From the NCBI GenBank assembly GCA_964633195.1, contig CAZWFL010000009.1, positions 14,679 through 78,678 on the forward strand: DNA of 64,000 nt. Reading direction: 5' to 3'. This document shows positions 7,157 through 64,000 of this stretch, piece by piece; the first letter of the stretch is position 1; each line of letters opens with the position of its first letter. A model generated the notes under the pieces. The model had not been told where the DNA came from and did not search any database. It was given only the letters and a program-made list of their open reading frames with translations. Source of the DNA: an uncultured Rikenellaceae bacterium. Lineage in GTDB: Bacteria > Bacteroidota > Bacteroidia > Bacteroidales > VadinHA17. The position numbers and the translations under genes were made by a program.

Positions 7157-7196
7157 ACCGGTTACTGCACATAAAGGCGGTAACCGGTTTTTTATT
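7157..7196. terminator. Second hairpin in the convergent spacer
   Basis: accggttac (7157-7165) pairs with gtaaccggt (7180-7188), followed by tttttatt. It abuts the stop of the minus-strand gene at 7192. Confidence 0.4.
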
Positions 7197-14655: not shown

Positions 14656-14671
14656 GAAACAACGAATATTT

Positions 14672-14938
14672 CTAGCCGAATTTGTAGTGTTTCCTGACAG
14701 CTTTGTTTATTTTCCACCGGCATTTGAGTCCTGAAGGGAAAACCACAAGATCTCCCTTTCCAAACGTGACAGGAGATCCGTTATCAGGCGTTACAACCAC
14801 ATCACCTTCAAGGATATAGCAGGTCTCGGCTTCGTCATATTCCCACGGGAACTCTGAGGCCTCTTTCTCCCAGACAGGCCATGATCTGACATTGAGCTTC
14901 TGAAGCTTCTCTTCGGTTGGTTTCTCTACGTGTATCAT
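14672..14938 (-). CDS. Small cupin (cupin_3 / EutQ-like) protein
   Basis: 88 aa. WPVWEKEASEFPWEYDEAETCYILEGDVVV...GDLVVFPSGLKCRWKI matches the single-domain cupin pattern. Confidence 0.65.
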   Translation of the reverse strand: MIHVEKPTEEKLQKLNVRSWPVWEKEASEFPWEYDEAETCYILEGDVVVTPDNGSPVTFGKGDLVVFPSGLKCRWKINKAVRKHYKFG

Positions 14939-14976
14939 AATTTGAAGAATTACTTTAGTGCGAATTTAATATTTAT

Positions 14977-15027
14977 TGCGGATTGCGGATTTTGTTGAGC
15001 AAAGCGAGAAAATCCCGCAGAGCGGGA
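14977..15027. repeat. TGCGGAT x2, TGAGCAAAGCGA module and CCCGC-aga-GCGGG hairpin
   Basis: tgcggat at 14977-14983 and 14984-14990. tgagcaaagcgagaaaatc at 14996-15014 shares 12 identical nt with 36158-36175. Hairpin tcccgcagagcggga at 15013-15027. Confidence 0.75.
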
Positions 15028-18287: not shown

Positions 18288-18490
18288 CAGTGAGGCTGTA
18301 TCAAAAGCCTCTTAATAGCCCCCTACCCCCTGCCTTGCTTCGCCGTAGCGGCTACGCGAAGGCGAAGAAGGGGGTCATCAAACATCAGATAATGAGTAAG
18401 TCCCCTTTAGGGCCTGCCTGCCGTAGCGTCAGCGCAGGCAGGGATTTAGGGGCGACTTAAAGGAATCGGGCTTTTGATACAGCCTCACTG
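18288..18490. repeat. 203-bp palindromic intergenic element with perfect 22-bp terminal inverted repeats (MITE-like)
   Basis: cagtgaggctgtatcaaaagcc (18288-18309) is the exact reverse complement of ggcttttgatacagcctcactg (18469-18490). The interior holds GTAGC-loop hairpins (gcttcgccgtagcggctacgcgaaggcgaag; cctgcctgccgtagcgtcagcgcaggcaggg). Confidence 0.85.
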
Positions 18491-23598: not shown

Positions 23599-23790
23599 GA
23601 GGCTGTATTAAAAGGTACTTATAACCGCAAAGGCTGCAAAGCCCTCCTTCGTCCCGATAAATCCGGACTTCGGCGGGCAGGATTGACGCAAAGGACGCAA
23701 AGCTGGCAGACAAACTGCTAAATCTTTGCGTCCTTAGCGTTTATCCTGGCGTTCTTTGTGGTTTATGGTTTTAATCTTTTAATACAGCCT
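23599..23790. repeat. 192-bp palindromic intergenic element, same TIR family as 18288-18490
   Basis: gaggctgtattaaaag (23599-23614) versus cttttaatacagcct (23776-23790). The core shared with the first element is GAGGCTGTATYAAAAG. Interior nested stems include ggacgcaaag/ctttgcgtcc and the module gtcccgataaatccggac. Confidence 0.8.
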
Positions 23791-25904: not shown

Positions 25905-25962
25905 AGTATTGATTGTTAATATGTTATATTTTTCCCTTTGAATGAATAGCTCAAAGGTCAGT

Positions 25963-26083
25963 GCTCAGAGCTCAGAGCTCAGAGCTCAGGGCAAAAAGAA
26001 CTCTGTGGCCTGGTTCGTTTGCCCTGCCCTGTGCCCTGCGCACCGTGCCCAGCCGTCGTCCCGATAAATCGGGACTATGGCTG
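25963..26083. repeat. Composite spacer: (GCTCAGA) x4, GCCCTG-rich stem and GTCCCGATAAATCGGGAC hairpin
   Basis: Heptamers at 25963-25990. cagggcaaa pairs with tttgccctg. Nested hairpin cagcc...gtcccgataaatcgggac...ggctg at 26050-26083. The spacer lies between two co-oriented minus-strand genes. Confidence 0.8.
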
Positions 26084-26100
26084 ACAAAGCCTGTGCCCTG

Positions 26101-30343: not shown

Positions 30344-31051
30344 ATGAACTGCAAATCATTACTCCTGTTCCTGGTTCTCATCTGCCCCTTTACGCTACTT
30401 GAAGGACAAAAAAATCCAAAGAGAATCACAATAACCGGTACCGTATCGGATGTAAACAAAAATCCAATTCCTGGTGCCGTTATCTTTGTCGATAATGTCA
30501 AAACCGACGTGAAAACAGACCAGCGAGGCTTCTATCGTATAAGAGTGAATTCTGATGCAGAAGAGATTCTTGTCTTTACACTTTTTAACGGCGTGGCCGA
30601 ACAGGAGATCAAAGGACGCAGATCAATAGATTTTATCCTCAGCAATGATGCAGATGCATCTGGTGACAGAGCTAAAATCGCTGATGACGAGGCTGTTAAT
30701 GTTGGTTATGGCACAATTCAGAAAAAAGATATGACCACACAGTCCCAAAAGATCGATACCCGGGACCCTTCATTTGCATCCTACCAGACGATCTACGATA
30801 TGATAAGGGGACGGTTTCCCGGCGTGGAGGTCTCAGGAAAAAGCATAAGAATTACCGGAGCATCATCACTTAATGTAAGCACTGAGCCTCTTTTTGTTGT
30901 CGACGGCGTAATCGTTAAGAGCATCGATGAAATTTCTCCCCAAAACGTTAAATCAATAGAAGTACTGAAGGGACCGGCAGCAACCGCTTACGGAACCAGA
31001 GGTTCAAACGGCGTGATAGTGATCACCAGGATGACGGGGAAAGACAGATGA
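30344..31051 (+). CDS. Stand-alone SusC N-terminal module (CarboxypepD_reg-like + TonB-box + partial plug), no beta-barrel
   Basis: 235 aa with a signal peptide. It aligns by eye with residues ~47-253 of the SusC at 18702: ITITGTVSDVNKNPIPGAVIFVDN, DEAVNVGYGTIQKKDMT and VKSIEVLKGPAATAYGTRGSNGVIVITRMTG. It ends where the barrel would begin. Confidence 0.7.
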   Translation: MNCKSLLLFLVLICPFTLLEGQKNPKRITITGTVSDVNKNPIPGAVIFVDNVKTDVKTDQRGFYRIRVNSDAEEILVFTLFNGVAEQEIKGRRSIDFILSNDADASGDRAKIADDEAVNVGYGTIQKKDMTTQSQKIDTRDPSFASYQTIYDMIRGRFPGVEVSGKSIRITGASSLNVSTEPLFVVDGVIVKSIDEISPQNVKSIEVLKGPAATAYGTRGSNGVIVITRMTGKDR

Positions 31052-33087
31052 ACGGATTTGCATGTGAAAGAAAAATAATGAGGATAATTTCATTTTTCAT
31101 CTTAATATCCACAGCTTCCTTAGGTTCAGCCCTGGCACAAAATGAAACCGATGTGATCAGAGGATGGCTGATGCACACCGATGCCGGAAATTCTTTTTAT
31201 AATCATCTGTCCGGTCAGGCTTACGATCTGCTCGATAAACGCTCAGAAGAGACAGGAAAGCTTAAAACACCCGATGACTGGCAGCAACGTCAAAACTTCA
31301 TCCGCGAAACACTGATGAACATTGTCGGACCCTTCCCTGAGAAAACACCTCTTAATGCCAGGGTGGTAAGTACAATTAACAAGGATAGCTACAGGATAGA
31401 ACACGTAATCTTCGAATCACAACCGGGATTTTTTGTGACATCCTCTCTTTTCATCCCTGCAGGCATGAAGCGGAATACCCGGCTTCCTGCAGTTATCTAC
31501 TGCAGCGGACACTCTGCCGAGGGCTACAGAAGTGCCGTATATCAGCATGTTATCCTGAATCTTGTAAAGAAAGGATTCATTGTATTTGCTTTTGATCCGG
31601 TCGGGCAGGGAGAGAGACTTGAATATTTCGATCCGGAGACCGGCAGATCAACTGTAGGAGGTCCGACCCGCGAACATTCATATCCGGGTGCACAGGCTTT
31701 CATAACCGGTAGTTCGCAAGCCCGTTTCATGATATGGGACGGTATAAGGGCCGTCGATTACCTTTTGTCCAGAAAGGAGGTGGATCCTTCAAGAATAGGT
31801 ATAACAGGACGCTCGGGCGGCGGGACACAATCGGCATATATTGCTGCATTTGATGAACGGATCAGTGCCTCGGCTCCGGAGAACTACATTACCAACTATA
31901 CCAGACTCCTCCAGTCAATAGGCCCGCAGGATGCGGAACAGAACCTCTTCAATATCATAAGGCACGGACTCGATCATCCTGATTTCCTTATTGTCAGAGC
32001 ACCGAAGCCCTGCCTTATGATAACGACATCAGGAGATATGTTCAGCATACAGGGAGCCATCGAGACAGAAAGAGAGGTGTCACGGATATATAATGCGTTA
32101 GGTGCGGATGATAATTTTTTACGGGTAGAGGATGATGCAGGCCACGCTTCAACATTGAAGAACAGGGAAGCAATGTACGCTTTCTTCCAGAATCATTTAA
32201 AAAATCCTGGTAATCCCCAAGACGAAGATACACAGCTTCTTACTGCGGAAGAATTGCGCGTTACCATTACAGGCCAGGTTTCCACATCACTGAAAGGGGA
32301 GACGGTATTCTCTGTCAACAGGAGATCTGCTGAGTTGCTCGAAGAAAATCTGTATCATCTGAGAAAGAATCCCGGGGAGTTTCTCCCGGGTGTGATCATT
32401 GCCGCCAGAAAGCTTTCCGGGTATAGACATCCGGATGGTGTTGATGAACAGGTTTTTACGGGACGTTTGCAGAGAGAGAATTATTCAATCGAAAAATATT
32501 TTGTCAGGGGAGAAGGTGATTATGTAATTCCTTATCTGTTTTTCAGACCTGAGGAGCACAATGGCAAATCAATGATTTATCTTCACCCGGAGGGCAAATC
32601 TGCAGAGGCTGGAGTGGGAGGCGAGATAGAAAAATTTGTAAATCAGGGCTTTACCGTTCTGGCCCCCGACCTGGCAATTTCAGGAGAAATGTCTCAGGGA
32701 ACCCTGAAAGGTGATGCATATTTCGACGGGGCATCTCATAATCTGTGGTACGCATCAATACTCACAGGGCGCTCCATAACAGGAATTCTTGCAGGGGATG
32801 TTGTCAGACTGGCAATGATCCTGAAAAAAATGGCAGGTAATACTGAAATTACCGGTTTTGCCGTAAAGGAGATGGCTTCTGTGTTACTGCATGCAGCAGC
32901 ATTCTGCGAAGATATCGGCAAAATTATTCTCCCGGAACAATACACTACTTACAGTGATCTGGTAATGAATAGGTTCTATAATCCTCATCTGGTTCTGTTG
33001 GCTGTTCCCGGAGCCCTCAGGGAGTATGACCTGCCCGACCTGGCCATTGCTCTTGGCCCTCGCCTGAAACCCGATGCTATGCAATAA
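31048..33087 (+). CDS. Secreted two-domain alpha/beta hydrolase (acetyl-xylan-esterase-like N-half)
   Basis: 679 aa. ATG 31048 overlaps the upstream stop (ATGA). The alternative ATG 31078 gives signal peptide MRIISFFILISTASLGSALAQ. Nucleophile elbow GRSGGGTQSAY and DDAGHAS His. Paralogue of 1528-2934. Confidence 0.65.
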   Translation: MNGFACERKIMRIISFFILISTASLGSALAQNETDVIRGWLMHTDAGNSFYNHLSGQAYDLLDKRSEETGKLKTPDDWQQRQNFIRETLMNIVGPFPEKTPLNARVVSTINKDSYRIEHVIFESQPGFFVTSSLFIPAGMKRNTRLPAVIYCSGHSAEGYRSAVYQHVILNLVKKGFIVFAFDPVGQGERLEYFDPETGRSTVGGPTREHSYPGAQAFITGSSQARFMIWDGIRAVDYLLSRKEVDPSRIGITGRSGGGTQSAYIAAFDERISASAPENYITNYTRLLQSIGPQDAEQNLFNIIRHGLDHPDFLIVRAPKPCLMITTSGDMFSIQGAIETEREVSRIYNALGADDNFLRVEDDAGHASTLKNREAMYAFFQNHLKNPGNPQDEDTQLLTAEELRVTITGQVSTSLKGETVFSVNRRSAELLEENLYHLRKNPGEFLPGVIIAARKLSGYRHPDGVDEQVFTGRLQRENYSIEKYFVRGEGDYVIPYLFFRPEEHNGKSMIYLHPEGKSAEAGVGGEIEKFVNQGFTVLAPDLAISGEMSQGTLKGDAYFDGASHNLWYASILTGRSITGILAGDVVRLAMILKKMAGNTEITGFAVKEMASVLLHAAAFCEDIGKIILPEQYTTYSDLVMNRFYNPHLVLLAVPGALREYDLPDLAIALGPRLKPDAMQ

Positions 33088-36150: not shown

Positions 36151-36175
36151 GTCATTCTGAGCAAAGCGAAGAATC
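36151..36175. repeat. GTCATTCTGAGCAAAGCGAAGAATC hairpin module
   Basis: attct (36154-36158) pairs with agaat (36170-36174). The loop tgagcaaagcga is shared with 14996-15007. The head gtcattc equals the 11-mer array unit at 39881. Confidence 0.65.
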
Positions 36176-37635: not shown

Positions 37636-37646
37636 TTTTTAACAAA

Positions 37647-37743
37647 CCCCCTTTAGGGGGCAGGGGGCAAGAATAAGGTACAGGTTTCAGAGTTCCAGGG
37701 TTTCATAGTTTCAAAGTTCTGAAATTTCAGAGTTTGAGGGTTG
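37647..37743. repeat. C5-TTTA-G5-CAGGGGGCAA module followed by GGTTTCANAGTT repeats
   Basis: ccccctttagggggcagggggcaa at 37647-37670 recurs at 48320-48346. ggtttcagagtt, ggtttcatagtt and aatttcagagtt lie between 37683 and 37734. Confidence 0.8.
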
Positions 37744-37771
37744 ATAAACATTTGAATTAATTTGGTTTTTT

Positions 37772-38840: not shown

Positions 38841-38878
38841 AAAGTTCGAAGTGCCTAAAGTTCGAAGTGCCTAAAGTT
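38841..38878. repeat. 16-bp unit AAAGTTCGAAGTGCCT x2.4
   Basis: Units at 38841-38856 and 38857-38872, with a partial unit to 38878. It differs from the 4458 unit at two positions. Confidence 0.9.
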
Positions 38879-39838: not shown

Positions 39839-39960
39839 GTCATTCGATAGCTTTGCCCGCTGTAGCTTTAGCGGAGGCGGGTCATTCAATAGTCATTCAA
39901 TGGTCATTCAATGGTCATTCAATAGTCATTCGATAGTCATTCAATTGTCATTCAATAGTT
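39839..39960. repeat. 11-bp array (GTCATTCRATN): 1 unit, a 31-bp GC hairpin insert, then 7.3 units
   Basis: Unit starts at 39839, then 39881, 39892, 39903, 39914, 39925, 39936 and 39947, an exact 11-nt period. The hairpin gctttgcccgctgtagctttagcggaggcgg occupies 39850-39880. Confidence 0.9.
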
Positions 39961-40061
39961 CCCGCCAGGGCGGGATCTCCGCTGACGCTCCGACATTCAA
40001 TGGTCACTCAATATGACGGCCGAATGACTCACCACTCATCACTCATCACTCATCGCTCACT
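39961..40061. repeat. CCCGC-cagg-GCGGG hairpin, degenerate inverted 11-mer remnants and heptamer array (ACTCATC) x5
   Basis: cccgccagggcggg at 39961-39974. cgaatgac at 40021-40028 is the reverse complement of the gtcattcg unit head. Heptamers at 40027-40061. Confidence 0.8.
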
Positions 40062-40450
40062 ACTTTTTTCTGGCGTTTATCACCGCTTTTCCCCCCTTGG
40101 TCAAATAAAAAATGACCGCATTTTTTTATTATATACCTTAGCTCTTCGAAAACAAAATCATGCAGAATTTGACACGCTATTTTAACACAGTAAATTTCAC
40201 ACAAAAAAGGACGTTTTTGATTTTTGCATCCTAATTATAAGCTGTTGTTATTAAACTTGTTATAACACTCTGCTGATGTTTTTCTACCCCCGGATGTTGG
40301 TCCAAAACCATGTGACTGACGGGGCGGAAGCATGTCCCGCCGCAGGCGGGAAAGACAAAAGAAATACGACACAATAATAGTTAGAGATTGCTTCGCTGCG
40401 CTCGCAATGACAGTACTAAAAATAAAATACTATATCACTGAACGCTAATA

Positions 40451-47178: not shown

Positions 47179-47209
47179 ATATCCGGTTTCAGGGGTTCTG
47201 TTGCAGACC

Positions 47210-47272
47210 GGTAATCCCTGCCCGACTGACATCGGTCAGGCGGGGGTGATCGGTATTCAGTAATCGGTAACA
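47210..47272. repeat. Heptamer array (GGTAATC): 1 unit, a 28-bp GC hairpin insert, then 4 units
   Basis: ggtaatc at 47210-47216. Hairpin cctgcccgactgacatcggtcaggcggg at 47217-47244. ggtgatc ggtattc agtaatc ggtaaca at 47245-47272. Confidence 0.85.
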
Positions 47273-47324
47273 GAGGCTTTGAGAGATAAATATGGACATA
47301 TAAGAAACAAATTTTACCATAATA

Positions 47325-48242: not shown

Positions 48243-48246
48243 GCAC

Positions 48247-48367
48247 CCACTAACCACTCCTTAAGAGTAACCGCCCCCCAACCCCCCTGAAGGGGGGCAA
48301 ATTAGTGGCACAGAACATACCCCCCTTTAGGGGGGCAGGGGGGCAAACAATAAGCAGGGGGACAAAC
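48247..48367. repeat. Nested C6/G6 hairpins and CAGGGGGNCAAAC direct repeats
   Basis: ccactaa (48247-48253) pairs with ttagtgg (48302-48308), enclosing cccccctgaagggggg (48282-48297). C6-ttta-G6 at 48320-48335. caggggggcaaac and cagggggacaaac follow. Confidence 0.8.
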
Positions 48368-48429
48368 GAACTGGCAGGTTATAAAAATTGAAATAATTTC
48401 AAAAACTTTCCTAACTTTAACACTCAAAT

Positions 48430-48459
48430 AACTCTAGGCACTTCGAACTCTAGGCACTC
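48430..48459. repeat. Inverted copy of the 16-bp family (reverse complement unit AGAGTTCGAAGTGCCT) x1.9
   Basis: aactctaggcacttcg at 48430-48445 and aactctaggcactc at 48446-48459. It ends 6 nt before ATG 48466. Confidence 0.85.
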
Positions 48460-50688: not shown

Positions 50689-50714
50689 GACAGGCGAGCA
50701 GCCTGTCGTTTTAT
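50689..50714 (+). terminator. Terminator-like hairpin
   Basis: gacagg (50689-50694) pairs with cctgtc (50702-50707). The loop is 7 nt, followed by gtttta. It lies 73 nt after stop 50616. Confidence 0.45.
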
Positions 50715-52041: not shown

Positions 52042-52105
52042 AGTACCCAGTACCCCCGCCTGACCGCTGACGCAGTCAGTCGGGCAGGCAGTACCCAGTA
52101 CCCAG
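52042..52105. repeat. Heptamer array (AGTACCC): 2 units, a GC hairpin insert, then 2.3 units
   Basis: agtaccc x2 at 52042-52055. Hairpin ccgcctgaccgctgacgcagtcagtcgggcaggc at 52056-52089. agtaccc agtaccc ag at 52090-52105. The hairpin stems match the reverse complement of 47217-47244. Confidence 0.85.
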
Positions 52106-55249: not shown

Positions 55250-55626
55250 AGGCAGGGTCTGTTTTGACAAATGAACGATAATAATTGACTAACATGCATA
55301 TTTTAACGACAAACTTGTTGTTTTGTTACATTAACATTTTCTTTGTTAATAAAAAAAATAATTAAACCGGCATGATTTATTCGGGGAATAAATTTCAAGG
55401 GGACAAATATAGAACCATTCAGGAGAATCATCCCTCAAATGTTAATAAATAAAAGTAAAAAATCTGAAAAAGGGTTATACCTTTTGCCGCCTGTAAAAGT
55501 CAGCAACAATATTATAAAATTTTTTTTCATTTCCTTCTAATAGGGCAGAAATATTTATTGCATTTTTGTAGATTCTAACTTTATTCAATTATAATTATTA
55601 AGCCTTAATACAAAAGAAGCATTTCC

Positions 55627-57006
55627 ATGAATTTTCCGGATTCAAAACCTGCTACTTATATCTTTAACCTTTTTACAAAAGGTCATGAGCGAAGTATAAG
55701 AGCCAAACAGAACATTCTGAGTTCTATTTTTATCAAAGGTTTCAGCATTTTGATAAGCTTAATAATGCTGCCACTAACATTAAGCTATGTTAATGCATCC
55801 CAGTATGGTATATGGCTTACTTTAAGTTCAATAGTGGCGTGGTTCAGTTTTTTCGACATTGGCCTTACCCAGGGATTACGTAACAAATTTGCTGAAGCCA
55901 AAGCAAAGAATGATGATTCCCTTGCCCGGGTTTATGTAAGTACGACTTATGCGATACTGGGTATAACATTCTTTTCTCTGTGGGTGATTTTCATGGTTGT
56001 TAACCAGTGGCTCGACTGGTCAGCAATATTAAAAGTGCCGTCTGAAATGAAGGGTGAAGTTACGATCCTTGCTCTGGTAGTCTTTACGTATTTCTGTATG
56101 CAATTTGTTTTCAGGATAATAGCCACAATACTGATTGCTGACCAGCGACCAGCTCTATCATCGTTACTGGATCTTCTGGGGCAATTGTTATGTCTGCTGA
56201 TTATTTTTATCCTTGTGAAAACAACTGAGGGTTCGCTTATAAAGTTGGGTCTGGCACTGTGCATTTCACCTCTGGTAATCTTAATAGGAGCAAATCTGTT
56301 TTTCTATAAGGGAAGGTATGAAAGATTCAGGCCCCGTTTTACGGATATTAAATTTTCATACGGAAGGGATCTGTTGAATCTGGGAATTATATTTTTCGTA
56401 ATACAGGTTGCCGCAATAATTCAATTCCAGACAGCCAATATAATAATTGCAAGAAGCTTTGGTACTGCAGATGTTACATCATATAATGTTGTTTACAGGT
56501 ACTTTGGTGTTCTTAACATGTTAACGGTTATCTTCGTTACCCCGTTCTGGTCAGCTTCAACTGAAGCTTTTTTGAAGAAAGATATAGAGTGGATCAAAAA
56601 TGGAATTAAGAAGTATAATTTGCTGAATCTTCTACTGATTGGCGCTGGTATTTTAATGTTGATTTTTTCAGGAGTCATATACCGTTTCTGGCTGGGAGAG
56701 GGAAAGGTAAACATTCCTTTCTCTCTTTCATTATGGGGATTCTTGTATTTCAATGTGATTATTTACGGTTCGAAATACGTAAGTTTTCTGAATGGTATTA
56801 ATGCATTGCGGTTGCAATTCATATCCAGCCTGATAAGTCCGTTTTTATACATTGCTGCAGCATTAATTCTGATCAGATTTTATCAGTCCGGAGTATATTC
56901 TCTTTTCATTGCATCCATTATTGCTAATTTTAACGCATTCCTTATTGCCCCTTTACAGTACCATATGATAATCAATAAAGATAGACGGGGAATTTGGATT
57001 AAATAG
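55627..57006 (+). CDS. wzx: Polysaccharide flippase (MOP/Wzx family)
   Basis: 459 aa with ~12-14 hydrophobic helices. N-terminal RAKQNILSSIFIKGFSILISLIMLPLTLSYV is typical of oligosaccharide flippases. First gene of a co-oriented glycosyltransferase cluster. Confidence 0.65.
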   Translation: MNFPDSKPATYIFNLFTKGHERSIRAKQNILSSIFIKGFSILISLIMLPLTLSYVNASQYGIWLTLSSIVAWFSFFDIGLTQGLRNKFAEAKAKNDDSLARVYVSTTYAILGITFFSLWVIFMVVNQWLDWSAILKVPSEMKGEVTILALVVFTYFCMQFVFRIIATILIADQRPALSSLLDLLGQLLCLLIIFILVKTTEGSLIKLGLALCISPLVILIGANLFFYKGRYERFRPRFTDIKFSYGRDLLNLGIIFFVIQVAAIIQFQTANIIIARSFGTADVTSYNVVYRYFGVLNMLTVIFVTPFWSASTEAFLKKDIEWIKNGIKKYNLLNLLLIGAGILMLIFSGVIYRFWLGEGKVNIPFSLSLWGFLYFNVIIYGSKYVSFLNGINALRLQFISSLISPFLYIAAALILIRFYQSGVYSLFIASIIANFNAFLIAPLQYHMIINKDRRGIWIK

Positions 57007-57129
57007 AAATCTATTAATGAATGTGTCAGATTATTTATTAGATAATATAAGGAACAGCTGTAATTATTAGACTTTTTACAAAAATATGTAAATGAATGAA
57101 TAAAACTGAAAACTCCTGATAAATAAGCT

Positions 57130-58566
57130 ATGAGAAAAAACGGTTATTTTTTTATTATACTTATAGTTCTTTTCTTCACTCAATTCTTGTCATATGAATC
57201 AGCACAGATTAAAATCATTGGATTAGCCTTTCTGATATTTTTTTCTTTTTTCGTCTTTTATATTTTAAAAGATCAATTTCTATTCATAATCAGCATTATT
57301 TCTCAATGCATTATATTTACCGTCGATGTACTTGGAGGGGTTACCCTGGCTCCCTTCCTTATTATTATCAGTTATATTTTCTTTAAAGGTCAATTATATA
57401 TAAAAGACAGGTTTGTCAGAACCTGCTTGTTTATTCTTGTAACTACTACCTACTTAGGATATATAGTTAAAAATCAAGGAGGTTTAAGTGATATAATCCA
57501 ATCGGCAGTTATCTTCACCTCAATTATTTTAACTTTCATCTTTGTTCAGAATTTTAAGTTCACTAGAATACAAATCAAAACTTTATTAAGTATTTTAACA
57601 TTTCTTTCAGGTCTGCTTCTTCTGACTGCGTTGAATCAAAAATATGTTTTTATAGACTCAACTATGCCTCTATTAGGTGCATTTGGCGGATATAGAAGCG
57701 TAAGCAGTGTGGGCTTAGCTTACGAAGGTCGATATCCTTCCTTATTTGCTGATTATGAATTATTTTCGGAGTTTGCCCTTTTAATGTTCATTTTTTCTTT
57801 CTCTCTCTTTGTTGAAAAAAAATCAGTAGAATATTTTAAACTTGGGCAAATACCATTATTGCTTCTGATTTTAAGTTTTGCGAATATTCTTATTACAGGT
57901 ACAAGGTCAGGATTCTTGTTGATGTTTGTTTTCATATTTTTGTTTTTCATACTACGACTAGACATTTTTTTTACTAAAAGGATCTTCGGATTAATAATCG
58001 TCCTGATACTATTTATCCCGCTTCTATTTCAATTTGGAGGTCTTATAGGATTTGATCTGATTATAGATCGCTTCCAGGAAATTGATAGCAGATATTTTAG
58101 TCTAAATAGTATTGTATCGGGAGAGCAAATCAACAGGGAAATTGTGTATGCTGAGGGATACGAGAGAATTAGCGAAGAAAACTGGGTATTGGGCTATGGT
58201 TTTGGTTTATCATCATCAAATGATTTAGCATGGTTTAGCAAAGCTGAGGTACAAGGCAGGAGTATTAGGGATTTTCATAGTTTATACCTTAGTATACCAA
58301 TGATATACGGCTGGATAGGAAGTATAACTTACCTTATGTTAATAATATACATTTTATTTTTATCATTTAAAAGATACTATATGACCTCTGACAGCCCATT
58401 AAGCGGCATTAATTTTGCTTTTTCATTCCTGTTTGTATTCTTTTTATTTAATCAAATAAAAATCAATTCTTTAAGAGTTTATAATTATCATTATCTGATC
58501 TGGATCTTAATGGGGTTAGCTTTAGCATTTACTAATTTGAAGTTAAACCCTGATGAAGAGGATTGA
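57130..58566 (+). CDS. O-antigen ligase/polymerase-like (Wzy-type) membrane protein
   Basis: 478 aa, very hydrophobic and AT-rich. A large loop is followed by FHSLYLSIPMIYGWIGS, resembling the Wzy_C H-x-x-Y-L...G motif. Confidence 0.55.
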   Translation: MRKNGYFFIILIVLFFTQFLSYESAQIKIIGLAFLIFFSFFVFYILKDQFLFIISIISQCIIFTVDVLGGVTLAPFLIIISYIFFKGQLYIKDRFVRTCLFILVTTTYLGYIVKNQGGLSDIIQSAVIFTSIILTFIFVQNFKFTRIQIKTLLSILTFLSGLLLLTALNQKYVFIDSTMPLLGAFGGYRSVSSVGLAYEGRYPSLFADYELFSEFALLMFIFSFSLFVEKKSVEYFKLGQIPLLLLILSFANILITGTRSGFLLMFVFIFLFFILRLDIFFTKRIFGLIIVLILFIPLLFQFGGLIGFDLIIDRFQEIDSRYFSLNSIVSGEQINREIVYAEGYERISEENWVLGYGFGLSSSNDLAWFSKAEVQGRSIRDFHSLYLSIPMIYGWIGSITYLMLIIYILFLSFKRYYMTSDSPLSGINFAFSFLFVFFLFNQIKINSLRVYNYHYLIWILMGLALAFTNLKLNPDEED

Positions 58567-58660
58567 CTTTTCAGGTAATTAGTTTAAAATAACAAAGTAG
58601 ATTATCACGAGAAATAATGTCAGAGCCTGGAGTTTACAATCCATCATTTAACCTTTAAGT

Positions 58661-59947
58661 ATGCGAGTTCTTTGGTTTAGTAATACACCATCTTTAGCTT
58701 TCAAGAAGCTTGGAAGCGATCCAAATCTGGGAGGGTGGATATCATCGCTGGAAAAGCAGATGGCAAAATCAAAAGAGATCGACCTTGGAGTGGCTTTTCC
58801 TTTTGGGTTTAGCCACCAGGGATCTTTCTCTATAGAGAATACCTGCTATTATCCTTTTCCTTATTCCAGAACCAGATCGAGAATAGGTAGAATTATTGAT
58901 AAGTGGAAATTTGCAATAGAACCTGAGGATGAAATCGAGTACTATCTTTCAATTATTGAACAGTTTAGACCCGATATTATTCATATTTTTGGCAGTGAAA
59001 GATCTTTTGGTTTAATAGTGAAAAGATGTGGAGTACCAGTTATCCTTCAAATACAGGGAAATCTGACTATATGTTCTATGAAATGGACCACAGGAATTTC
59101 TCTGTCACAAATGCTAAGATATTCAGATAAAATGAATCTATTACTCGGCTATAGTATTTTTCATGAGTACTATCTTTTAAGAAAAAGATCTATAAGAGAG
59201 CAGAAGATTTTAAAGGAATGTAAATTTATAATAGGAAGAACAGACTGGGACCGGAGAATAACAAAAATCTTTGCACCACAAAGCATTTACTATTATTGTG
59301 ATGAATTAATTCGGGAAGAGTTTTACAATAAGAGATGGGAATATCAAAAAAATAATAAAACTATCATTATTTCAACGCTCAGTCCTATTGCCTACAAGGG
59401 TTTAGAAGTGGTTCTGATGGCAGCAAGTCTGCTAAAAGAAACAAAAAAGATCGATTTTGAGTGGCAAATTGCAGGAGTGAAGGGTAGTGAAGAGCTAATA
59501 AAAATAATTGAGAGATCAAAAAGAATGAAGTTCAAAGATACCAATGTAAAGTTCAAAGGTTCTATGGATGCTAATAGATTAGCTGAGACACTCTTAAATT
59601 CAAGTTGTTATGTGCATCCGTCCCATATTGAGAATAGTCCTAATAGTGTGTGTGAGGCCATGATTATTGGTCTTCCTATCATTGCTACATATGCAGGTGG
59701 AATTCCAAGTATAGTTAAGGACAGAAGTGAGGGAATACTAGTTCAAGACGGAGATCCATATGCCTTGTCAGGGGCAATTTTGGAATTACTAGAATCCCCT
59801 GCAGACATGAAATTATTCTCGGAAAATGCGAAAAAAAAGGCACTTAAGCGACATAATCCTGTTAAAATTGTGGAAGAAATGACTAGTATCTATAGAATGG
59901 TTTTAGATTCTTCTTTGCCCAGAGATCAACAAAAAATTGACAATTGA
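58661..59947 (+). CDS. Glycosyltransferase family 4 (GT-B, glycos_transf_1)
   Basis: 428 aa. C-terminal E-x7-E region VHPSHIENSPNSVCEAMIIGLPIIATYAGGIPSIV. Confidence 0.8.
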   Translation: MRVLWFSNTPSLAFKKLGSDPNLGGWISSLEKQMAKSKEIDLGVAFPFGFSHQGSFSIENTCYYPFPYSRTRSRIGRIIDKWKFAIEPEDEIEYYLSIIEQFRPDIIHIFGSERSFGLIVKRCGVPVILQIQGNLTICSMKWTTGISLSQMLRYSDKMNLLLGYSIFHEYYLLRKRSIREQKILKECKFIIGRTDWDRRITKIFAPQSIYYYCDELIREEFYNKRWEYQKNNKTIIISTLSPIAYKGLEVVLMAASLLKETKKIDFEWQIAGVKGSEELIKIIERSKRMKFKDTNVKFKGSMDANRLAETLLNSSCYVHPSHIENSPNSVCEAMIIGLPIIATYAGGIPSIVKDRSEGILVQDGDPYALSGAILELLESPADMKLFSENAKKKALKRHNPVKIVEEMTSIYRMVLDSSLPRDQQKIDN

Positions 59948-60010
59948 CCGCTTATATTATTGCTTTAGTGCATATTCGGATTGCTTTAAAATAATTCTCA
60001 CTATTTTAGC

Positions 60011-61351
60011 ATGAGTAATTTCTACCCTAAGATTTTAATTCTTGGTCAGACTTTCAATAAGTTTTCTGGTGGTGGCATAACGCTGACTAATCTATTTAAA
60101 GAATGGCCCGGGATAAATATAGCTGCTATTTCATATCCATATTATTTTAAAGATTATTCTACAGAAATTTGCTCAAATTATTATCAGATTGGCTCTGATG
60201 AGTATCGATGGGCATTTCCATTTAATCTAATTAAAAAAGAATATCCTTCAGGGCTTATTAAAAGCAGAATAAGATCTCAAGGTAAGATACCCGGTAAAAG
60301 GCCAGTTATAAAACACTTTTTATCAGAAAGCATTCTGGAGCCATTCGTCAGGTGGTCTGGGATTATACACTGTATTTCCAGTGTTAATATGTCAGCGAAA
60401 CTTAAAAAATGGTTAGCAGAGTTTGAACCTGAAATTCTTTATCTACAGGTTTCTACCCGGGAGACTATAATATTTGCCCTGAGATTAATCAATTATCTGC
60501 AAATACCTTCGGTAATCCATATGATGGATGACTGGCCTTCAACAATAAGTACCGGCGGACCACTGGCGAAATACTGGAGAACAAAAATTGACAAAGAATT
60601 CAGACAATTGCTGGATAAGGTTAATATTCATTTGAGTATCAGTAACGCAATGTCAGCGGAGTATTACAGGCGTTATAAGAAAACTTTTATGGCGTTCCAT
60701 AATCCTGTGGATATCAAATTGTTCACAATGCAAGATGAAAAGAAAACTTTTCAGGGAAACAGGTTTAAGATATTATATATAGGGCGGATAGGTACTGCAA
60801 ATAAACAGACAATCCTGTTTTTTGCCCGATTTATTTCGGGGTTAACAATTGACGGAACGGGGATAGAACTCGATATCTTCTCTAAAGATATTAATGATCC
60901 GGATCTGAAGATAATGAATAATATTGAGAATATCGGGCTAAAACAACCAATAAAACATGATACCGTTCCGGCTTTGCTTAAAGAATATGATTTGCTGTTA
61001 TTGCCACTTGATTTTTCAGAAGAAGGATTAAGATTTGCCAGGTTTTCTGTTCCGACAAAAGCATCAGAGTATTTGATATCGGGAACCCCTGTCATGGTAT
61101 TTGCACCCCGGGAGACAGCGATCTCAAAATTCTGTAGTGAAAATGATTGCGGATTATGTGTCACCGAAATGAACGAAAAGCATATTTCAGATGCTCTACA
61201 TCTGTTGATCAGAGATGATAAATACCGGGAAAGAATAACAGATAATGCTGTGAGGATCGCTAAAACACTTTTTGACGCTGACAAAGTACGCAGTGAATTT
61301 CAGCAATTGTTAATAAACCTGTGCCGTCATTCAATAAAAAAAGCAGACTGA
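60011..61351 (+). CDS. GT-B-like glycosyltransferase, paralogue A
   Basis: 446 aa. KILILGQTFNKFSGGGITLTNLF N-terminus. C-terminal PTKASEYLISGTPVMVFAP resembles the GT1/GT4 donor-binding helix. Roughly half of residues are identical to 62617-63936 by eye. Confidence 0.55.
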   Translation: MSNFYPKILILGQTFNKFSGGGITLTNLFKEWPGINIAAISYPYYFKDYSTEICSNYYQIGSDEYRWAFPFNLIKKEYPSGLIKSRIRSQGKIPGKRPVIKHFLSESILEPFVRWSGIIHCISSVNMSAKLKKWLAEFEPEILYLQVSTRETIIFALRLINYLQIPSVIHMMDDWPSTISTGGPLAKYWRTKIDKEFRQLLDKVNIHLSISNAMSAEYYRRYKKTFMAFHNPVDIKLFTMQDEKKTFQGNRFKILYIGRIGTANKQTILFFARFISGLTIDGTGIELDIFSKDINDPDLKIMNNIENIGLKQPIKHDTVPALLKEYDLLLLPLDFSEEGLRFARFSVPTKASEYLISGTPVMVFAPRETAISKFCSENDCGLCVTEMNEKHISDALHLLIRDDKYRERITDNAVRIAKTLFDADKVRSEFQQLLINLCRHSIKKAD

Positions 61352-61473
61352 CCATCTGTTGCGGATAATTGTTGATTATAATTGCCTGATGTTTCAATAA
61401 AAGTTATTAATAACAGTTAATCTGGTGTATAGCCCGGGTTTCCACCCGCATAACAGACCACAATTTAAATAAT

Positions 61474-62544
61474 ATGATTCAGATAATAATCAAACAAAGC
61501 AGACTAAGCACATTGAAAGAGATCCTGAATGATCCTGAACGGAAGTCAATTGGCAAAATGATTTCGGAGTTGTCGTATCTCACTTTTATATATAAGGAAT
61601 TGCCGGTCCATTATTTCAGCAGGTATTTATTCAAAAAGAATATAGTCAGTATCAGGGATTATGTTCCCAACAAAATGGCATCAGGAATTGCTCCCTTCTT
61701 CAATGATGGAAGAGTTAAAGAAGTAATAGACAATAAGTTATATTTCGATCTTTTTTACAGGCAGTTCGGGATCAGCCTTCCGGAAATTCTGATGTATAAT
61801 CATAAACATAAGTTCGTTACAGGCGACACTCTCCATGAGGTGAATGATTTTGATGCTTTTTGGGACCTGATTAAGAGGCTGTTTGAACAAAATCCTTCTG
61901 TAGGTTCGCTGTTTATAAAAAAAACATATTCAAGCTCAAGCGGCAGGTATACCTATAAGTTTAACAGGGAGATGGTCAACAATGATCCGGAAATGTTAAG
62001 AATTATCTGGTCCGAAGTAATTGGTTCCGAATATTTATTTCAGAAAACAGTAATTCAGCATCCTGAGCTGGACAAACTCAATCCTGCATGCCTGAATACA
62101 ATCAGGATTGATACATTCTTGAACAGTGACGGCACTATTGATATTATGTCAGCATTTATTAAACTGAGCATCGGCAGCCATGTTGACAATACTGTTTTTG
62201 GAGGTTGCGGTGTAGGGATTGATCTGCAAACGGGCAGGATGAAAAAATATGGCTGGTCAAAACTTAGAGTAGCCGGTGTTAAAGTACTTGAAGAACATCC
62301 GGTTACGAAAACCAGGTTTGAGAATCATGAAATTCCTTTCTTTCGTGAGGTGAAAGAACTTGTTATTAAAACAGCCGGACTAATGCCGGGACTCAGGCTT
62401 ATCGGCTGGGATGTCGGAATAGGAGAATCGGGTCCTGTACTTATTGAAGGGAATTCAGATTACGGGATCAACTCCAATGATATGATGTATGGCGGATATA
62501 TGGCTAATCCGGTTTTTAGAAAGGTATTAAACGAGATGAATTAG
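61474..62544 (+). CDS. Sugar-transfer-associated ATP-grasp family protein
   Basis: 356 aa. FIKKTYSSSSGRY (ATP-grasp lysine region), QKTVIQHPEL and C-terminal RLIGWDVGIGESGPVLIEGNSDYG fit the ATPgrasp_ST pattern as I recall it. Confidence 0.55.
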   Translation: MIQIIIKQSRLSTLKEILNDPERKSIGKMISELSYLTFIYKELPVHYFSRYLFKKNIVSIRDYVPNKMASGIAPFFNDGRVKEVIDNKLYFDLFYRQFGISLPEILMYNHKHKFVTGDTLHEVNDFDAFWDLIKRLFEQNPSVGSLFIKKTYSSSSGRYTYKFNREMVNNDPEMLRIIWSEVIGSEYLFQKTVIQHPELDKLNPACLNTIRIDTFLNSDGTIDIMSAFIKLSIGSHVDNTVFGGCGVGIDLQTGRMKKYGWSKLRVAGVKVLEEHPVTKTRFENHEIPFFREVKELVIKTAGLMPGLRLIGWDVGIGESGPVLIEGNSDYGINSNDMMYGGYMANPVFRKVLNEMN

Positions 62545-62616
62545 CAGGTCACGACCGGATATATCGATGACATCAATCTGACATGACTGATATTAGCATT
62601 TAAAAGAAGTAATAAT

Positions 62617-63936: not shown

Positions 63937-64000
63937 TAAATAATATCTTCCTGATGAGTAATAAATTAGTAAAAAGCTGGGTCAAGTCTTAAGGTCTATT

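Follow-up and report, generated by a model that had tools for sequence, protein, structure and literature searches.

GC-rich palindromic elements and the short tandem arrays that they interrupt in intergenic DNA of Bacteroidota

How does a short tandem array come to be cut in two by a hairpin? The question is raised by the 64,000-nucleotide stretch of DNA analysed here (the window), in which tandem arrays of 7- or 11-bp units are interrupted by GC-rich inserts of 28-41 nt at 39.9, 47.2, 52.1, 26.05, and 39.96 kb. An earlier note on this DNA had described three split arrays (39839-39960, 47210-47272, and 52042-52105), all of which were recovered, together with the arrays that it had placed next to other hairpins, found here as ACTCATC x4.7, ATTGCGG x2.4, and AGCTCAG x6. 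Two further split arrays had escaped it, namely a TGCCCTG array interrupted at 26050-26090 and the 11-bp array interrupted again at 39960-39993. The features of the window are listed below; the array assignments marked TRF are from that program.

14975-15027: ATTGCGG array of 2.4 copies (14975-14991) and hairpin TCCCGCAGAGCGGGA (15013-15027), adjoining, not nested
18406-18451, plus strand: 30-nt hairpin CCTGCCTGCCGTAGCGTCAGCGCAGGCAGG (18413-18442) in a CCCCTTTAGGGG-type motif, with TTTAGGG on either side
23651-23668, plus strand: module GTCCCGATAAATCCGGAC, whose inner palindrome is that of 26058-26075 and whose outer context is different
25948-25989: AGCTCAG array of six copies without a hairpin, in the same spacer as the family B insert (TRF)
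26025-26049: TGCCCTG array left of the family B insert (TRF)
26050-26090, plus strand: family B element, 41 nt, CAGCC-GTC-[GTCCCGATAAATCGGGAC]-TAT-GGCTG-ACAAAGC, with a smaller palindrome nested in its loop
26091-26100: TGCCCTG array resuming, CTGTGCCCTG; 6/7 junction match at offset 0
39839-39849: single 11-bp unit GTCATTCGATA left of insert E1, in phase with the array from 39882
39851-39881, plus strand: insert E1, 31 nt, CTTTGCCCGCTGTAGCTTTAGCGGAGGCGGG; weak hairpin with CCCGC/GCGGG arms, CCGCT/AGCGG being an alternative stem
39882-39959: 11-bp array GTCATTCAATR, about 7.2 copies (TRF: 39881-39959, 91% matches, score 130)
39960-39993, plus strand: insert E6, 34 nt, hairpin TCCCGCCAGGGCGGGA and tail TCTCCGCTGACGCTCCGA, splitting the 11-bp array a second time
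39994-40013: two degenerate 11-bp units, the array continuing past E6; 10/11 junction match at offset 0
40027 to about 40059-40064: ACTCATC array, about 4.7 copies (TRF)
40335-40351, plus strand: hairpin TCCCGCCGCAGGCGGGA of a small family common to 15013 and 39960, outside any array
47210-47216: GGTAATC unit left of the family A hairpin
47217-47244, plus strand: family A hairpin, 28 nt, CCTGCCCGACTGAC-ATCG-GTCAGGCGGG, read as a derived, precise insertion
47245-47272: four degenerate 7-bp units, GGTGATC GGTATTC AGTAATC GGTAACA
52042-52055: AGTACCC, two copies
52056-52089, minus strand: long-loop variant of the family A hairpin, 34 nt, reading GCCTGCCCGACTGAC-TGCGTCAGCG-GTCAGGCGG on the minus strand
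52090-52105: AGTACCC, about 2.3-2.4 copies (TRF); phase across the insert perfect, 7/7

When the inserts were taken out in silico, the phase of the array was restored at each of the five split arrays. For every insert the flanks matched best at a phase offset of 0, with 10 of 11 positions matching at 39851 and at 39960, 6 of 7 at 47217 and at 26050, and all 7 at 52056. The boundaries of the inserts were assigned by the analyst, and those of families A and B were fixed independently by empty sites and other copies. All five split arrays lie no more than about 150 nt from a stop codon. Two of the spacers were compared with 20 contigs from metagenomes that had been assembled independently; 19 contigs agreed base for base and the 20th lacked the left anchor, and the split arrays are therefore not an assembly artefact. 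In these 19 comparable contigs the spacers are the same as in the window, and no polymorphism was found within the window's own strain.

The hairpins of the window belong to several families, and not to the one CCCGC...GCGGG class under which the earlier note had grouped them. The literal motif is found only at 39856, 39961, 15014, and 40336, whereas the hairpins at 47217 and 52056 form one other family (family A) and the element at 26050 represents a third (family B). The recurrence of the hairpins exceeds chance, because CCCGC-N3-22-GCGGG occurs four times in the window versus 0.40 expected and TCCCGC-N3-6-GCGGGA three times versus 0.00 expected, every occurrence lying in a spacer. Folding as single-stranded DNA classed as strong the 47217 hairpin (-10.3 kcal/mol, z = -4.55), the 52056 hairpin (-11.7 kcal/mol, z = -3.05), and the 26050 element (-12.6 kcal/mol, z = -5.57); among the other window hairpins, z was -4.67 for 15013-15027, -3.39 for 40335-40351, and -3.38 for 18413-18442. 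Insert E1 is a weak hairpin (-5.6 kcal/mol, z = -1.0, folded as 39853-39883 with a 2-nt offset), and so is E6 (z = -0.3).

The expectation that the hairpins would cluster was borne out, in that families A, B, and E6 recur at other loci. Family B has an identical copy in locus L146 and two 93%-identical copies in L217, each within CTGAGCT-type arrays, and a variant with another loop sits in GCAGTTG repeats of L021, L140, and L217. Members of the E6 family (TTCCGCTGTCGCGGAATCTCCGCT..GCTCCGA) were found in L110, L140, L152, L157 (two copies), L172, and L219, and every copy adjoins arrays. A copy of E1, 29/31 identical, lies outside any array in another MAG (L033), and a module related to E1, GTAGCTTTAGCGRAGG, occurs in L157. 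The architecture as a whole is likewise recurrent, as the note had proposed, being seen within the window and far beyond it in other contigs.

Related genomes reveal which came first at 47.2 kb, the array or the hairpin. The hairpin at 47217-47244 is present in the window only; the sister of the window (L221, 88.6% nucleotide identity, with L222, L224, and L021) and the outgroup (L225, 74%, with L226) carry a GGTAATC-type array without it. The outgroup L225 reads GGTAATC-GGTGATC uninterrupted, which is exactly the two flanks of the window joined, and the orthologous pair has six units with the hairpin and six without. A second comparison is provided by L157, a contig that abuts or overlaps the window and contains two paralogous blocks, near-identical over more than 120 nt, that differ by a few substitutions and a 34-nt gap. 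The gap corresponds to a family A hairpin, and the units number 4+2 in the filled block and 6 in the empty one. The target duplication is 0 bp in both comparisons. Because the empty sites carry the arrays with equal numbers of units, we conclude that the arrays pre-exist and vary independently, and that the hairpins were inserted precisely, with no duplication of the target. As judged from these alignments, the 47217 hairpin is a derived insertion. Both filled/empty pairs concern family A; the elements at 39851, 39960, and 26050 were probably inserted in the same manner, by analogy and in view of their dispersed copies. The two inserts of the 11-bp array (39851 and 39960) lack an empty-site comparison, because the orthologous position is masked by an N run in L021 and the contig of L224 ends inside the array. 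Another possible pair, window 37636-37771 and L021 3611-3745, was rejected since different modules occupy the same place.

These comparisons bear directly on the model of the earlier note, in which the insertion of a mobile hairpin duplicates 7-11 bp of the target, and further rounds of insertion and excision, or slippage, expand the duplicated stretch into an array. Such a model would account for the same unit on both sides of each hairpin, for the different units at different window sites, for the single unit left of the hairpin at 39851, and for the 7-nt direct repeat TTTAGGG around the hairpin at 18406-18451. It anticipated empty sites with a single unit copy, whereas both the orthologous and the paralogous empty sites hold the full array, a finding that the note itself had set against the generation of arrays by insertion. 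Furthermore, at least 11 of the 16 intergenic arrays of the window contain no hairpin, hairpin-free arrays vary in copy number, and flanking duplication is absent from the copies in tRNA T-loops described below. We consider the target-duplication model extremely improbable. The part of the proposal that stands is a small, non-autonomous mobile hairpin, as evidenced by filled and empty sites and dispersed identical copies; the 7-11 bp duplication does not.

The arrays have dynamics of their own. Arrays of such units (5-11 bp in long simple-sequence repeats, as many as 16 bp in this DNA) are strongly enriched in non-coding DNA, covering 8.6% of the intergenic versus 0.5% of the coding bases of the window. 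The 47.2-kb array has 6, 6 (L221), 8 (L225), and 0 (L228) units across four lineages, and a hairpin-free array has 4 units in L225 versus 2 in L226, which are near-identical strains with an identical PorP protein. The unit itself can turn over at one orthologous position, as with ACTCATC in the window versus CGCTCTA x3.6 in the sister genome. The earlier note had taken the unit to be specific to each locus, which is true between the sites of the window but not at genome scale, where arrays of the 11-bp unit, GTCTTCN, GGGTACT, and GCAGTTG recur at many loci. The 11-bp unit forms arrays in L157 at 1678-1790, 2021-2045, and 2242-2290, and the window has a unit of about 16 bp ending in AGTGCCT at 4458, again at 38841, and in a related form near 48430. 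A generic detector of split arrays, applied to about 80 other Bacteroidota loci (about 1.3 Mb), gave mostly noise. Distant relatives, Algoriphagus among them, were sampled in stretches of 20 kb; these had plain arrays, and the split-array architecture was not obvious in them.

Family A allowed the association with arrays to be quantified. Its arms (CCTGCCCGACTGAC-loop-GTCAGGCGGG) were found at more than 120 metagenome loci by a scan that demanded exact arms, and the context proportions given here are proportions among the matches listed and not a census. Array-like flanks surround 33 of the 126 copies listed (26%) versus 0.6% of positions drawn at random from these loci, an excess of about 43-fold. 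In contigs compositionally similar to the window, nearly all family A copies lie in arrays by the analyst's count; these array-rich contigs were tentatively assigned to the genomic origin of the window by tetranucleotide similarity (r = 0.75-0.95), and L157 by overlap instead. If arrays and hairpins simply piled up in tolerant, mostly 3' spacers, their overlap would be proportional to the space that arrays occupy. The figures of the window are compatible with such co-residence, the excess being modest (about 5 of 22-25 intergenic GC hairpins in arrays covering about 9%) and the five split arrays all being close to stop codons. The excess among the listed copies of family A, which is near total in window-like contigs, speaks against it, as do an orientation and a position within the array unit that are constant in this family, and we regard chance co-residence as very unlikely.

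Homology alone fails to explain the spread of family A, because its host units are of many kinds: GTCTTCN, GGGTRCT, GGGCTTC, GGTAATC, GATTTAC, GAAGATT, and GATTATT. The long-loop variant identical to the 52056 hairpin occurs in the first three of these in window-like contigs. Among 91 distinct flank types, the target is a loose consensus with T at -2 (54%), C at -1 (43%), G at +1 (67%), A or G at +2 (69%), and T at +3 (62%). Where family A hairpins are paired, the intervals between them are 48, 55, 62, and 132 nt, each being 34 plus a multiple of 7, as co-amplification with the array would give. A process restricted to homologous recombination or gene conversion, by which the hairpin would be copied between arrays of the same unit or within mosaic blocks and not transposed, is consistent with the many copies in same-unit arrays (GTCTTCN and GGGTACT) and with their unchanging orientation relative to the unit. 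Whole blocks of array and hairpin are indeed repeated, for example as three blocks of about 250 nt in L157, and a GCAGTTG-family B-GCAGTTG module recurs in L021, L140, and L217. However, the places where one hairpin variant occurs include arrays of unrelated units, tRNA T-loops, and, in L151, the loop of a different palindrome, and the GGTAATC array hosting the 47217 hairpin shares no more than about 2+3 nt with other host arrays, which makes recombination as the only process unlikely. Stems of at least 5 bp flank 12% of family A copies versus 6% of controls; with this modest excess, no targeting of loops is claimed except for the copies in T-loops and isolated instances, of which L151 is one.

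It is also conceivable that the elements are maintained by selection, the hairpins as 3'-end RNA stabilizers, terminators, or protein-binding sites, and the arrays as spacers or binding arrays. Such roles would be in keeping with the extragenic position of the hairpins (128 of the 132 unique family A copies among the matches listed lie outside long ORFs and 4 inside), with the nearby stop codons in the window, and with the 23-nt arms of family A, which are identical across very diverse metagenomes. The spacer with the 47.2-kb array is 94.9% identical between lineages, and the flanking genes are only 77-80% identical; because the spacer is more conserved than the genes, the array may be under selection and not neutral. 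On the other hand, no T-run follows any of the five inserts, although ordinary terminators with T-runs exist in the window (7011-7045, 7157-7188, and 50689-50707). The orientation of family A relative to neighbouring genes is unbiased, and a directional terminator role is thus unsupported. A search against Rfam gave no match in the window at the gathering score, and in 20 hairpin-bearing loci it returned tRNAs and one rRNA end and nothing else. Moreover, hairpins differ in presence or absence between close relatives in which nothing else has changed, and array units turn over at orthologous positions. We judge selected elements to be a quite unlikely explanation of the whole.

The probable explanation, in our view, is that two independent kinds of repeat meet in these spacers, non-autonomous palindromic elements of the REP or SDR type landing in simple-repeat arrays that already exist. 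Short arrays with units of 7-16 bp, similar to STRR heptamers, would form, and gain or lose units, through slippage during replication or through unequal exchange. Several families of GC-rich palindromes of 28-41 nt would enter whole, always oriented the same way with respect to the array unit and without target-site duplication, so that a split array would be the result of a hairpin element landing inside an existing array and the array would not be a product of the insertion. Arrays are strongly favoured landing sites, possibly since each unit repeats the loose target, which in family A is about T-T/C-C^G-R-T, and since slipped arrays, like hairpin loops, may expose single strands. Slippage of the array after insertion would then co-amplify the hairpin and produce higher-order repeats of a hairpin plus n units.

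To our knowledge, small palindromic repeats are common in bacteria, and their mobilization is understood only for the REP/RAYT pair, in which the genome has a cognate RAYT (Y1 HUH) gene, as a rule with its REPs on either side. The present elements resemble REP, REPIN, and BIME sequences, which are imperfect palindromes of 20-40 nt (28-41 nt here) that lie outside genes, form several multicopy families within a genome, and join other short motifs in mosaics. REP elements have not, as far as we know, been described as embedded in tandem arrays, and the gene physically joined to family A encodes a GIY-YIG nuclease and not a RAYT. HUH/IS200-type chemistry leaves no target duplication upon insertion. 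In IS200/IS605-type single-strand transposition, the insertion lies 3' of a short specific target and in a fixed orientation; here duplication was absent and the orientation fixed, the target was a loose consensus only, and no TnpA was found in the loci searched. REP elements are sometimes inserted inside other palindromes, and REP palindromes carry a conserved GTAG or CGTC tetranucleotide at one end (PMC3733652). An end tag of this kind is absent here, since family A has CCTG...CGGG and family B starts with CAGC; CGTC and GTAG occur only inside some hairpin loops. No mobilizing gene was found in the window. The RAYT/IS200 mobilizer proposed in the earlier note was likewise found neither in the window nor in the other loci fetched through hairpin and orthologue searches, when these were compared with seed proteins; the only two IS200-like hits were in unrelated Algoriphagus loci. 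Nor does the suggested likeness to MITEs hold, since MITEs derive from DDE transposons and have terminal inverted repeats and a target-site duplication of fixed length; the elements here are single hairpins of 28-41 nt with a 0-bp duplication in both filled/empty comparisons. No copy of family A was detected in the viral contigs or plasmids searched.

A closer parallel may be the SDR elements of heterocystous cyanobacteria, which Elhai and colleagues are said to have described in 2008 as non-autonomous mobile sequences of 21-27 nt that insert without duplication and nest. They reportedly share spacers with tandem heptamer (STRR) arrays, and no associated enzyme is said to have been identified. 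The present elements belong to another phylum and have unrelated sequences. Long simple-sequence repeats with units of 5-11 bp occur in prokaryotes (Mrazek et al. 2007, as summarized in PMC4679880), and arrays of the heptamer TAACTGA are found in Beggiatoaceae, Cyanobacteria, and Bacteroidetes (PMC4679880). The arrays studied here are similar in being intergenic, dominated by heptamers, built of lineage-specific units, and missing from the same position in related strains (PMC4679880). These published reports, by contrast, are not known to describe hairpin elements inside the arrays. The GC clusters of yeast mitochondria and the repetitive hairpin elements of fungal and sponge mitochondria are reported to be mobile (PMC4478555, PMC2800124), and these too are small GC-rich palindromes proliferating in AT-richer spacers; they differ in being organellar and in sequence, and they are not known to be tied to a GIY-YIG minigene or to tandem arrays. 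Anatomy spoke against CRISPR, dif/Xer sites, and integron attC sites, because the elements do not fit them in size or copy pattern and have no spacers or central regions.

Some family A copies split the T-loop motif GGTTC^GAATCC in a duplicated tRNA 3' end. Removal of the hairpin restores the motif exactly, and there is no flanking duplication. An ORF of about 87 amino acids that matches the GIY-YIG domain PF01541 (E = 1e-14 to 1e-16) ends in the hairpin. The end of this ORF reads ...GGT TCC CTG CCC GAC TGA, and the 5' arm of the hairpin thus encodes SLPD and the stop codon. A C-terminal end of the form (G/S)SLP(D/A/E/G/N) was present in 57 of the closest 120 homologue clusters, close homologues are carried by Chitinophagaceae, and tRNA-linked GIY-YIG genes that end in a family A hairpin occur in many environmental Bacteroidota. 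The 19 hits of the GIY-YIG HMM were all in loci selected for the hairpin; the window gave none, nor did about 1.3 Mb of other Bacteroidota loci, and no GIY-YIG gene was found in any examined contig of the window's own lineage. The literature searched contained nothing on GIY-YIG genes joined to palindromic repeats or tRNA T-loops in Bacteroidota.

The known protein nearest to this arrangement is SegB of phage T4, a free-standing GIY-YIG homing endonuclease encoded in a tRNA gene cluster, which recognizes GGTTCRANTCC (a motif of the T-psi-C stem-loop) and cleaves tRNA genes at their 3' end (PMC2330249). In Bacteroidota, too, the GIY-YIG gene adjoins tRNA genes, and family A splits the SegB-type motif as GGTTC^GAATCC. 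The Bacteroidota proteins differ in being chromosomal and in consisting of a minimal Slx1-like domain without a DNA-binding extension (PMC1564403). SegB, unlike these genes, is not known to be tied to any palindromic element. As a lead, the minimal GIY-YIG nuclease is the best candidate for the enzyme that mobilizes the hairpins. Less likely than not is the more specific proposal that family A, and perhaps other families, is the non-autonomous partner of this nuclease, a GIY-YIG counterpart of REP/RAYT. According to this proposal, the nuclease encoded downstream of a tRNA gene would recognize putative T-loop-like TTC^G sites, and the hairpin would be copied into the cut sites and destroy them, by analogy with the SegB target. 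Less stringent cutting at TTC^G-type motifs within heptamer arrays might then drive insertion of the hairpin there, and perhaps also local tandem amplification. The idea that the host array units mimic the T-loop was rejected, as the likeness seen by eye stops at TTC^G.

The importance of the locus lies in a clean, datable insertion of a 28-nt element without target duplication, in a preference for tandem arrays that is strong and quantifiable, and in the physical linkage of the same hairpin to a GIY-YIG nuclease gene of very small size within a duplicated tRNA 3' end. Should it be this nuclease that moves the hairpin, the two would constitute a second, mechanistically different partnership of nuclease and palindrome, one enzyme would lie behind a phylum-wide class of intergenic mosaics, and there would be an explanation for much of the intergenic DNA that is rich in repeats and breaks assemblies in these genomes. 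Even without the nuclease step, a plausible but wrong idea is corrected, namely that the arrays are footprints of insertion. The GIY-YIG units that follow tRNAs are themselves tandemly repeated; in L205 the period is 338 bp, and L122 and L204 also have repeated units.

Three spacers in which a short tandem array is split by a hairpin had been described in the earlier note, and checking on the sequence reproduced all three exactly. Two further cases were found, one of them a second break in the 11-bp array of site 1. The five inserts are as follows.

39851–39881: 31-nt insert at site 1 (39.9 kb), preceded by a single 11-bp unit and followed by 7.2 units
39960–39993: 34-nt insert (E6), the second break in the same 11-bp array, followed by two more units
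47217–47244: 28-nt hairpin at site 2 (47.2 kb), preceded by a single GGTAATC unit and followed by about 4 degenerate units
52056–52089: 34-nt hairpin at site 3 (52.1 kb), preceded by two AGTACCC units and followed by 2.4 units
26050–26090: 41-nt insert that breaks a TGCCCTG array

With the boundaries as we assigned them, the flanks of all five inserts matched best at a phase offset of zero. The 16 intergenic arrays of the window occupy 8.6% of its intergenic bases, compared with 0.5% for arrays in coding bases; the arrays belong to the spacers. Hairpins of the form CCCGC...GCGGG were observed 4 times in the window (0.4 expected), and those of the form TCCCGC-N3-6-GCGGGA 3 times (0 expected). 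Twenty contigs were fetched from independently assembled metagenomes, and in all 19 comparable ones the spacers were base-for-base identical to those of the window, indicating that the repeats are not assembly artefacts. No polymorphism within the population was seen among these 19 contigs.

The hairpins cluster into several dispersed families, and the inserts are of several sequence types rather than of the single class that had been supposed. Family A comprises the hairpins at 47217 and 52056, which lie on opposite strands and have the common arms CCTGCCCGACTGAC and GTCAGGCGGG. Family B is the insert at 26050 (CAGCC...GGCTGACAAAGC), the 39960 insert combines a short TCCCGCC/GGCGGGA hairpin and a conserved tail, and the 39851 insert represents a fourth type. 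When folded as single-stranded DNA, families A and B were far better than shuffled controls; the two inserts of site 1 (39851 and 39960) did not stand out from their controls in this way. Family B and the 39960 type also occur in metagenome contigs bearing family A, inside or beside arrays. Nested palindromes were found as well: GTCCCGATAAATCGGGAC lies in the loop of family B, and in contig L151 (about position 610, minus strand) family A lies within a GTCATTCTGAGC...GAAGAAT palindrome. Together, hairpins and arrays resemble the mosaic repeat clusters of other bacteria. The palindrome GTCATTCTGAGC...GCGAAGAAT, whose loop holds the family A hairpin in L151, is unbroken at 36151–36175 of the window.

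Hairpins with a C-run and a G-run, CCCCC(C)TTTAGGGGG(G)CAGGGGG(G)C, were also seen at 37646–37669 and 48280–48345, and in other Bacteroidota MAGs (L044 at about 9957, nearly identical; L118; L041). Those in the window are part of a block of about 135 nt (48243–48380), which L221, L225, and L226 lack in their orthologous spacers.

Orthologues of the 47.2 kb locus were recovered via its PorP protein, and the gene order is kept in three other lineages. Nucleotide identity to the window, measured across PorP and the spacer and gene that follow it, was 88.6% for L221, L222, and L224 (the UBA5621 lineage), 74% for L225 and L226, and 72% for the more distant L228. L221 and L225 are 73.6% identical, which makes the window and L221 sisters and L225 the outgroup. 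In the sister lineage the array is present and the hairpin is absent. In the outgroup, CAGACCGGTAATC is followed directly by GGTGATCAGTATTC, so that both flanks of the window are joined without the hairpin; L228 has a 38-nt spacer and no array. The window, sister, and outgroup have 6, 6, and 8 units, respectively, and zero bases are duplicated. The simplest history would be that the array predates the split from L225 and that a single precise 28-nt insertion then occurred in the lineage of the window.

An independent, paralogous empty site was found in L157, a contig that matches the first 158 nt of the window at 99.4% and runs on past its left end. Two of its blocks are near-identical over more than 120 nt apart from a few substitutions and a 34-nt gap, which matches the family A hairpin and lies in a GAAGACN array (4+2 versus 6 units). 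The earlier note had offered the hypothesis that the hairpin duplicates 7–11 bp of its target and that this duplication is amplified into the array, and had itself named empty sites as the check. In the sister, the outgroup, and the L157 paralogue these sites carry the array without the hairpin and without duplication. Array growth driven by target duplication is thus contradicted by its own test, and that account is refuted: family A enters arrays precisely and always in the same orientation, duplicating nothing.

Directly left of the window start, L157 (1449–2440) contains a 1-kb spacer between apparently convergent genes, nearly all of it repeats: GAAGACN x15, an 11-mer x10, TCGCTTTG x13.6, three higher-order blocks of about 250 nt, E6-type hairpins, and a single family A hairpin. 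L157 diverges from L229 and L231 from position 296 on, showing that the strain of the window and another strain differ in genes at this junction. In that other strain, a nucleotidyltransferase/HepT-like toxin-antitoxin pair (L229, 4643–5588) lies just past the left end of the window.

The arrays themselves pre-exist and vary independently of the hairpins. L225 and L226, whose PorP proteins are identical, differ in an 8-bp GGCACT-type array upstream of the next gene (4 and 2 units, respectively), and the unit at one orthologous position is ACTCATC in the window and CGCTCTA in the sister. Nor is the unit private to each locus, as had been thought. A unit of about 16 bp ending in AGTGCCT (AAAGTTYGRAGTGCCT) directly follows the stop codons of two unrelated genes (4458–4495 and 38841–38878), with a related copy in reverse orientation in a third spacer (about 48425–48458); the sister and outgroup lineages have related 8-bp GGCACT arrays at the orthologous place. 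L157 has three further arrays of the 11-bp unit of site 1, here too beside a 39960-type hairpin. Long simple-sequence repeats are described for many prokaryotes, where most have heptamer units and slippage has been proposed to generate them; some Bacteroidetes are known to carry heptamer arrays (PMC4679880). The arrays of the window are ordinary repeats of this kind. With the hairpin removed and the array included, the 47.2 kb spacer (window 47179–47324, L225 6215–6346) is 94.9% identical to that of the outgroup, compared with 77–80% for the flanking genes (adjacent 600 nt each). Relative to the sister the order is the opposite, with 83.6% identity in the spacer and 89% in the genes. The excess over gene identity relative to L225 suggests that this spacer, including its array, may be under strong constraint or may have recombined recently.

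Public metagenome contigs were scanned for the exact family A arms with any loop of 3–30 nt, which gave at least 120 loci. Soils, sediments, fresh and marine waters, and digesters were among the sources of the matches listed, which after removal of duplicates comprised at least 132 copies, 4 of them inside long ORFs. No copy was found in the viral contigs or plasmids searched. Among the matches listed, 33 of 126 assessable copies (26%) had tandem-array flanks, compared with 0.6% of random positions in the same loci. This 43-fold excess contradicts chance co-residence of arrays and hairpins; arrays are highly preferred sites for family A. By our count among these matches, nearly all copies were in arrays in contigs resembling the window in tetranucleotide composition (r up to 0.95; a piece known to belong to the same genome gave 0.93). 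The host units were GTCTTCN, GGGTRCT, GGGCTTC, GGTAATC, GATTTAC, GAAGATT, and GATTATT. Spread by recombination alone is contradicted by this variety of units and contexts, since copying between homologous arrays cannot be the whole explanation for so many kinds of unit.

Within arrays, the orientation of family A and its position in the unit are constant, and 91 distinct flank types define a loose target (−2 T, −1 C, +1 G, +2 A/G, +3 T). Arrays may be favoured because they repeat this target and would expose single strands. Paired hairpins in one array are 48, 55, 62, or 132 nt apart, that is, 34 plus a multiple of 7, as slippage in an array already holding the insert would produce. A selected role as RNA or terminator also accounts less well for the data: the hairpins lack a T-run, no orientation bias is seen, and presence or absence differs between close relatives. 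The inserts at 39851, 39960, and 26050 presumably arose like family A, judging from dispersed copies and in-phase flanks rather than empty sites. As a general model, we consider it probable that REP/SDR-like palindromic elements insert into simple-repeat arrays. In about 12 marine contigs (L114, L128, L134, L143, L182, L195, L206, L207, L209, L212, L214), family A with the loop GTCA occupies one conserved locus, between ...GGCGCTGAAATGGGC and GGTTATGCACCGCATAATAACC..., indicating an old insertion retained across related species.

About 20 other copies of family A are flanked by GGTTC and GAATCC, the T-loop motif of tRNA, and sit in a second, partial tRNA 3' end (Leu, Arg, Gln, or Ser), with an intact tRNA gene directly or about 300 nt upstream. 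In most of these loci the two tRNA ends enclose a short ORF, of about 87 codons in L168, coding for a nuclease domain of the GIY-YIG type (PF01541, E about 1e-14 to 1e-16). The ORF continues across the T-stem and ends in the hairpin, the 5' arm of which encodes its final codons and stop (...G S L P D stop). Such minigenes (L113, L122, L168, L187, L201, L204, L205, L216; e.g. L168 350–830) consist of an intact tRNA, a terminator, the ORF, and a second T-arm and acceptor end with family A between GGTTC and GAATCC. They are in tandem in L122, L204, and L205 (338-bp period and 1–4 tandem hairpins in L205), and apparently frameshifted in L187 and L201. A profile search with these ORFs gave 19 matches, all in loci selected by the hairpin, and none in the window and other fetched Bacteroidota loci (about 1.3 Mb). 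In a large protein collection, 57 of the best 120 homologue clusters end in (G/S)SLP(D/A/E/G/N), so the join of nuclease gene and hairpin is general and not an accident of the search. Two clusters read through a mutated stop into the predicted translation of the hairpin and tRNA end, and the few named clusters are annotated Chitinophagaceae or Chitinophagales. Phage T4 SegB, a GIY-YIG homing endonuclease encoded in a tRNA cluster, recognises GGTTCRANTCC and cuts tRNA gene 3' ends (PMC2330249), a precedent for the motif split by family A. Stand-alone prokaryotic GIY-YIG domains have been classed as Slx1-like minimal nucleases (PMC1564403). It is a tentative and rather doubtful proposal that the candidate nuclease supplies the mobilising activity. 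No match to approximate IS200/RAYT seed proteins was obtained in the window or other fetched hairpin-bearing loci.

In function, the hairpin elements resemble REPs and the small dispersed repeats of cyanobacteria. The REP family is defined by a tag (GTAG or CGTC) together with a RAYT partner, and by that definition they fall outside it. A reading as MITEs was rejected because they cause no duplication and have no body bounded by terminal inverted repeats. Three features appear to be undescribed in the literature searched: the strong preference of a defined hairpin family for arrays, the wide range of environments in which family A occurs with identical arms, and its fusion to a tRNA-linked minimal GIY-YIG gene.

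The window is from an uncultured member of the Bacteroidota; among genomes of the species collection, the MAG 'Bacteroidales bacterium UBA5621' is nearest to it. The window encodes SusC/SusD-like proteins, a PorP/SprF protein, many sugar-metabolism enzymes, and several type IX secretion cargo proteins (Por_Secre_tail, CHU_C). None of its genes encodes a transposase, integrase, or nuclease. A low-GC (33–37%) polysaccharide-synthesis island at 55271–64000, encoding a flippase, a Wzy-like protein, glycosyltransferases, and ATP-grasp proteins, has no tandem array in its 894 intergenic bases and no GC hairpin element except a single weak 5-bp stem (61435–61448); both abound elsewhere in the window. 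Recently acquired DNA not yet colonised by repeats would fit this pattern. An unlisted minus-strand ORF of about 88 aa (MIHVEKPTEEKLQKLNVRSWPVWEKEASEFPWEYDEAETCYILEGDVVV...) lies at 14660–14940; our guess is a cupin-like protein. If it is a real gene, it divides a 552-nt spacer in two, and a divergent promoter region would then hold both the ATTGCGG array and the hairpin at 15013. A 235-aa ORF (30344–31051), which overlaps the start of an esterase/peptidase S9-like gene (31048–33087) by 4 nt, has only the N-terminal CarboxypepD_reg and Plug domains of a TonB-dependent receptor and looks like a truncated receptor remnant.
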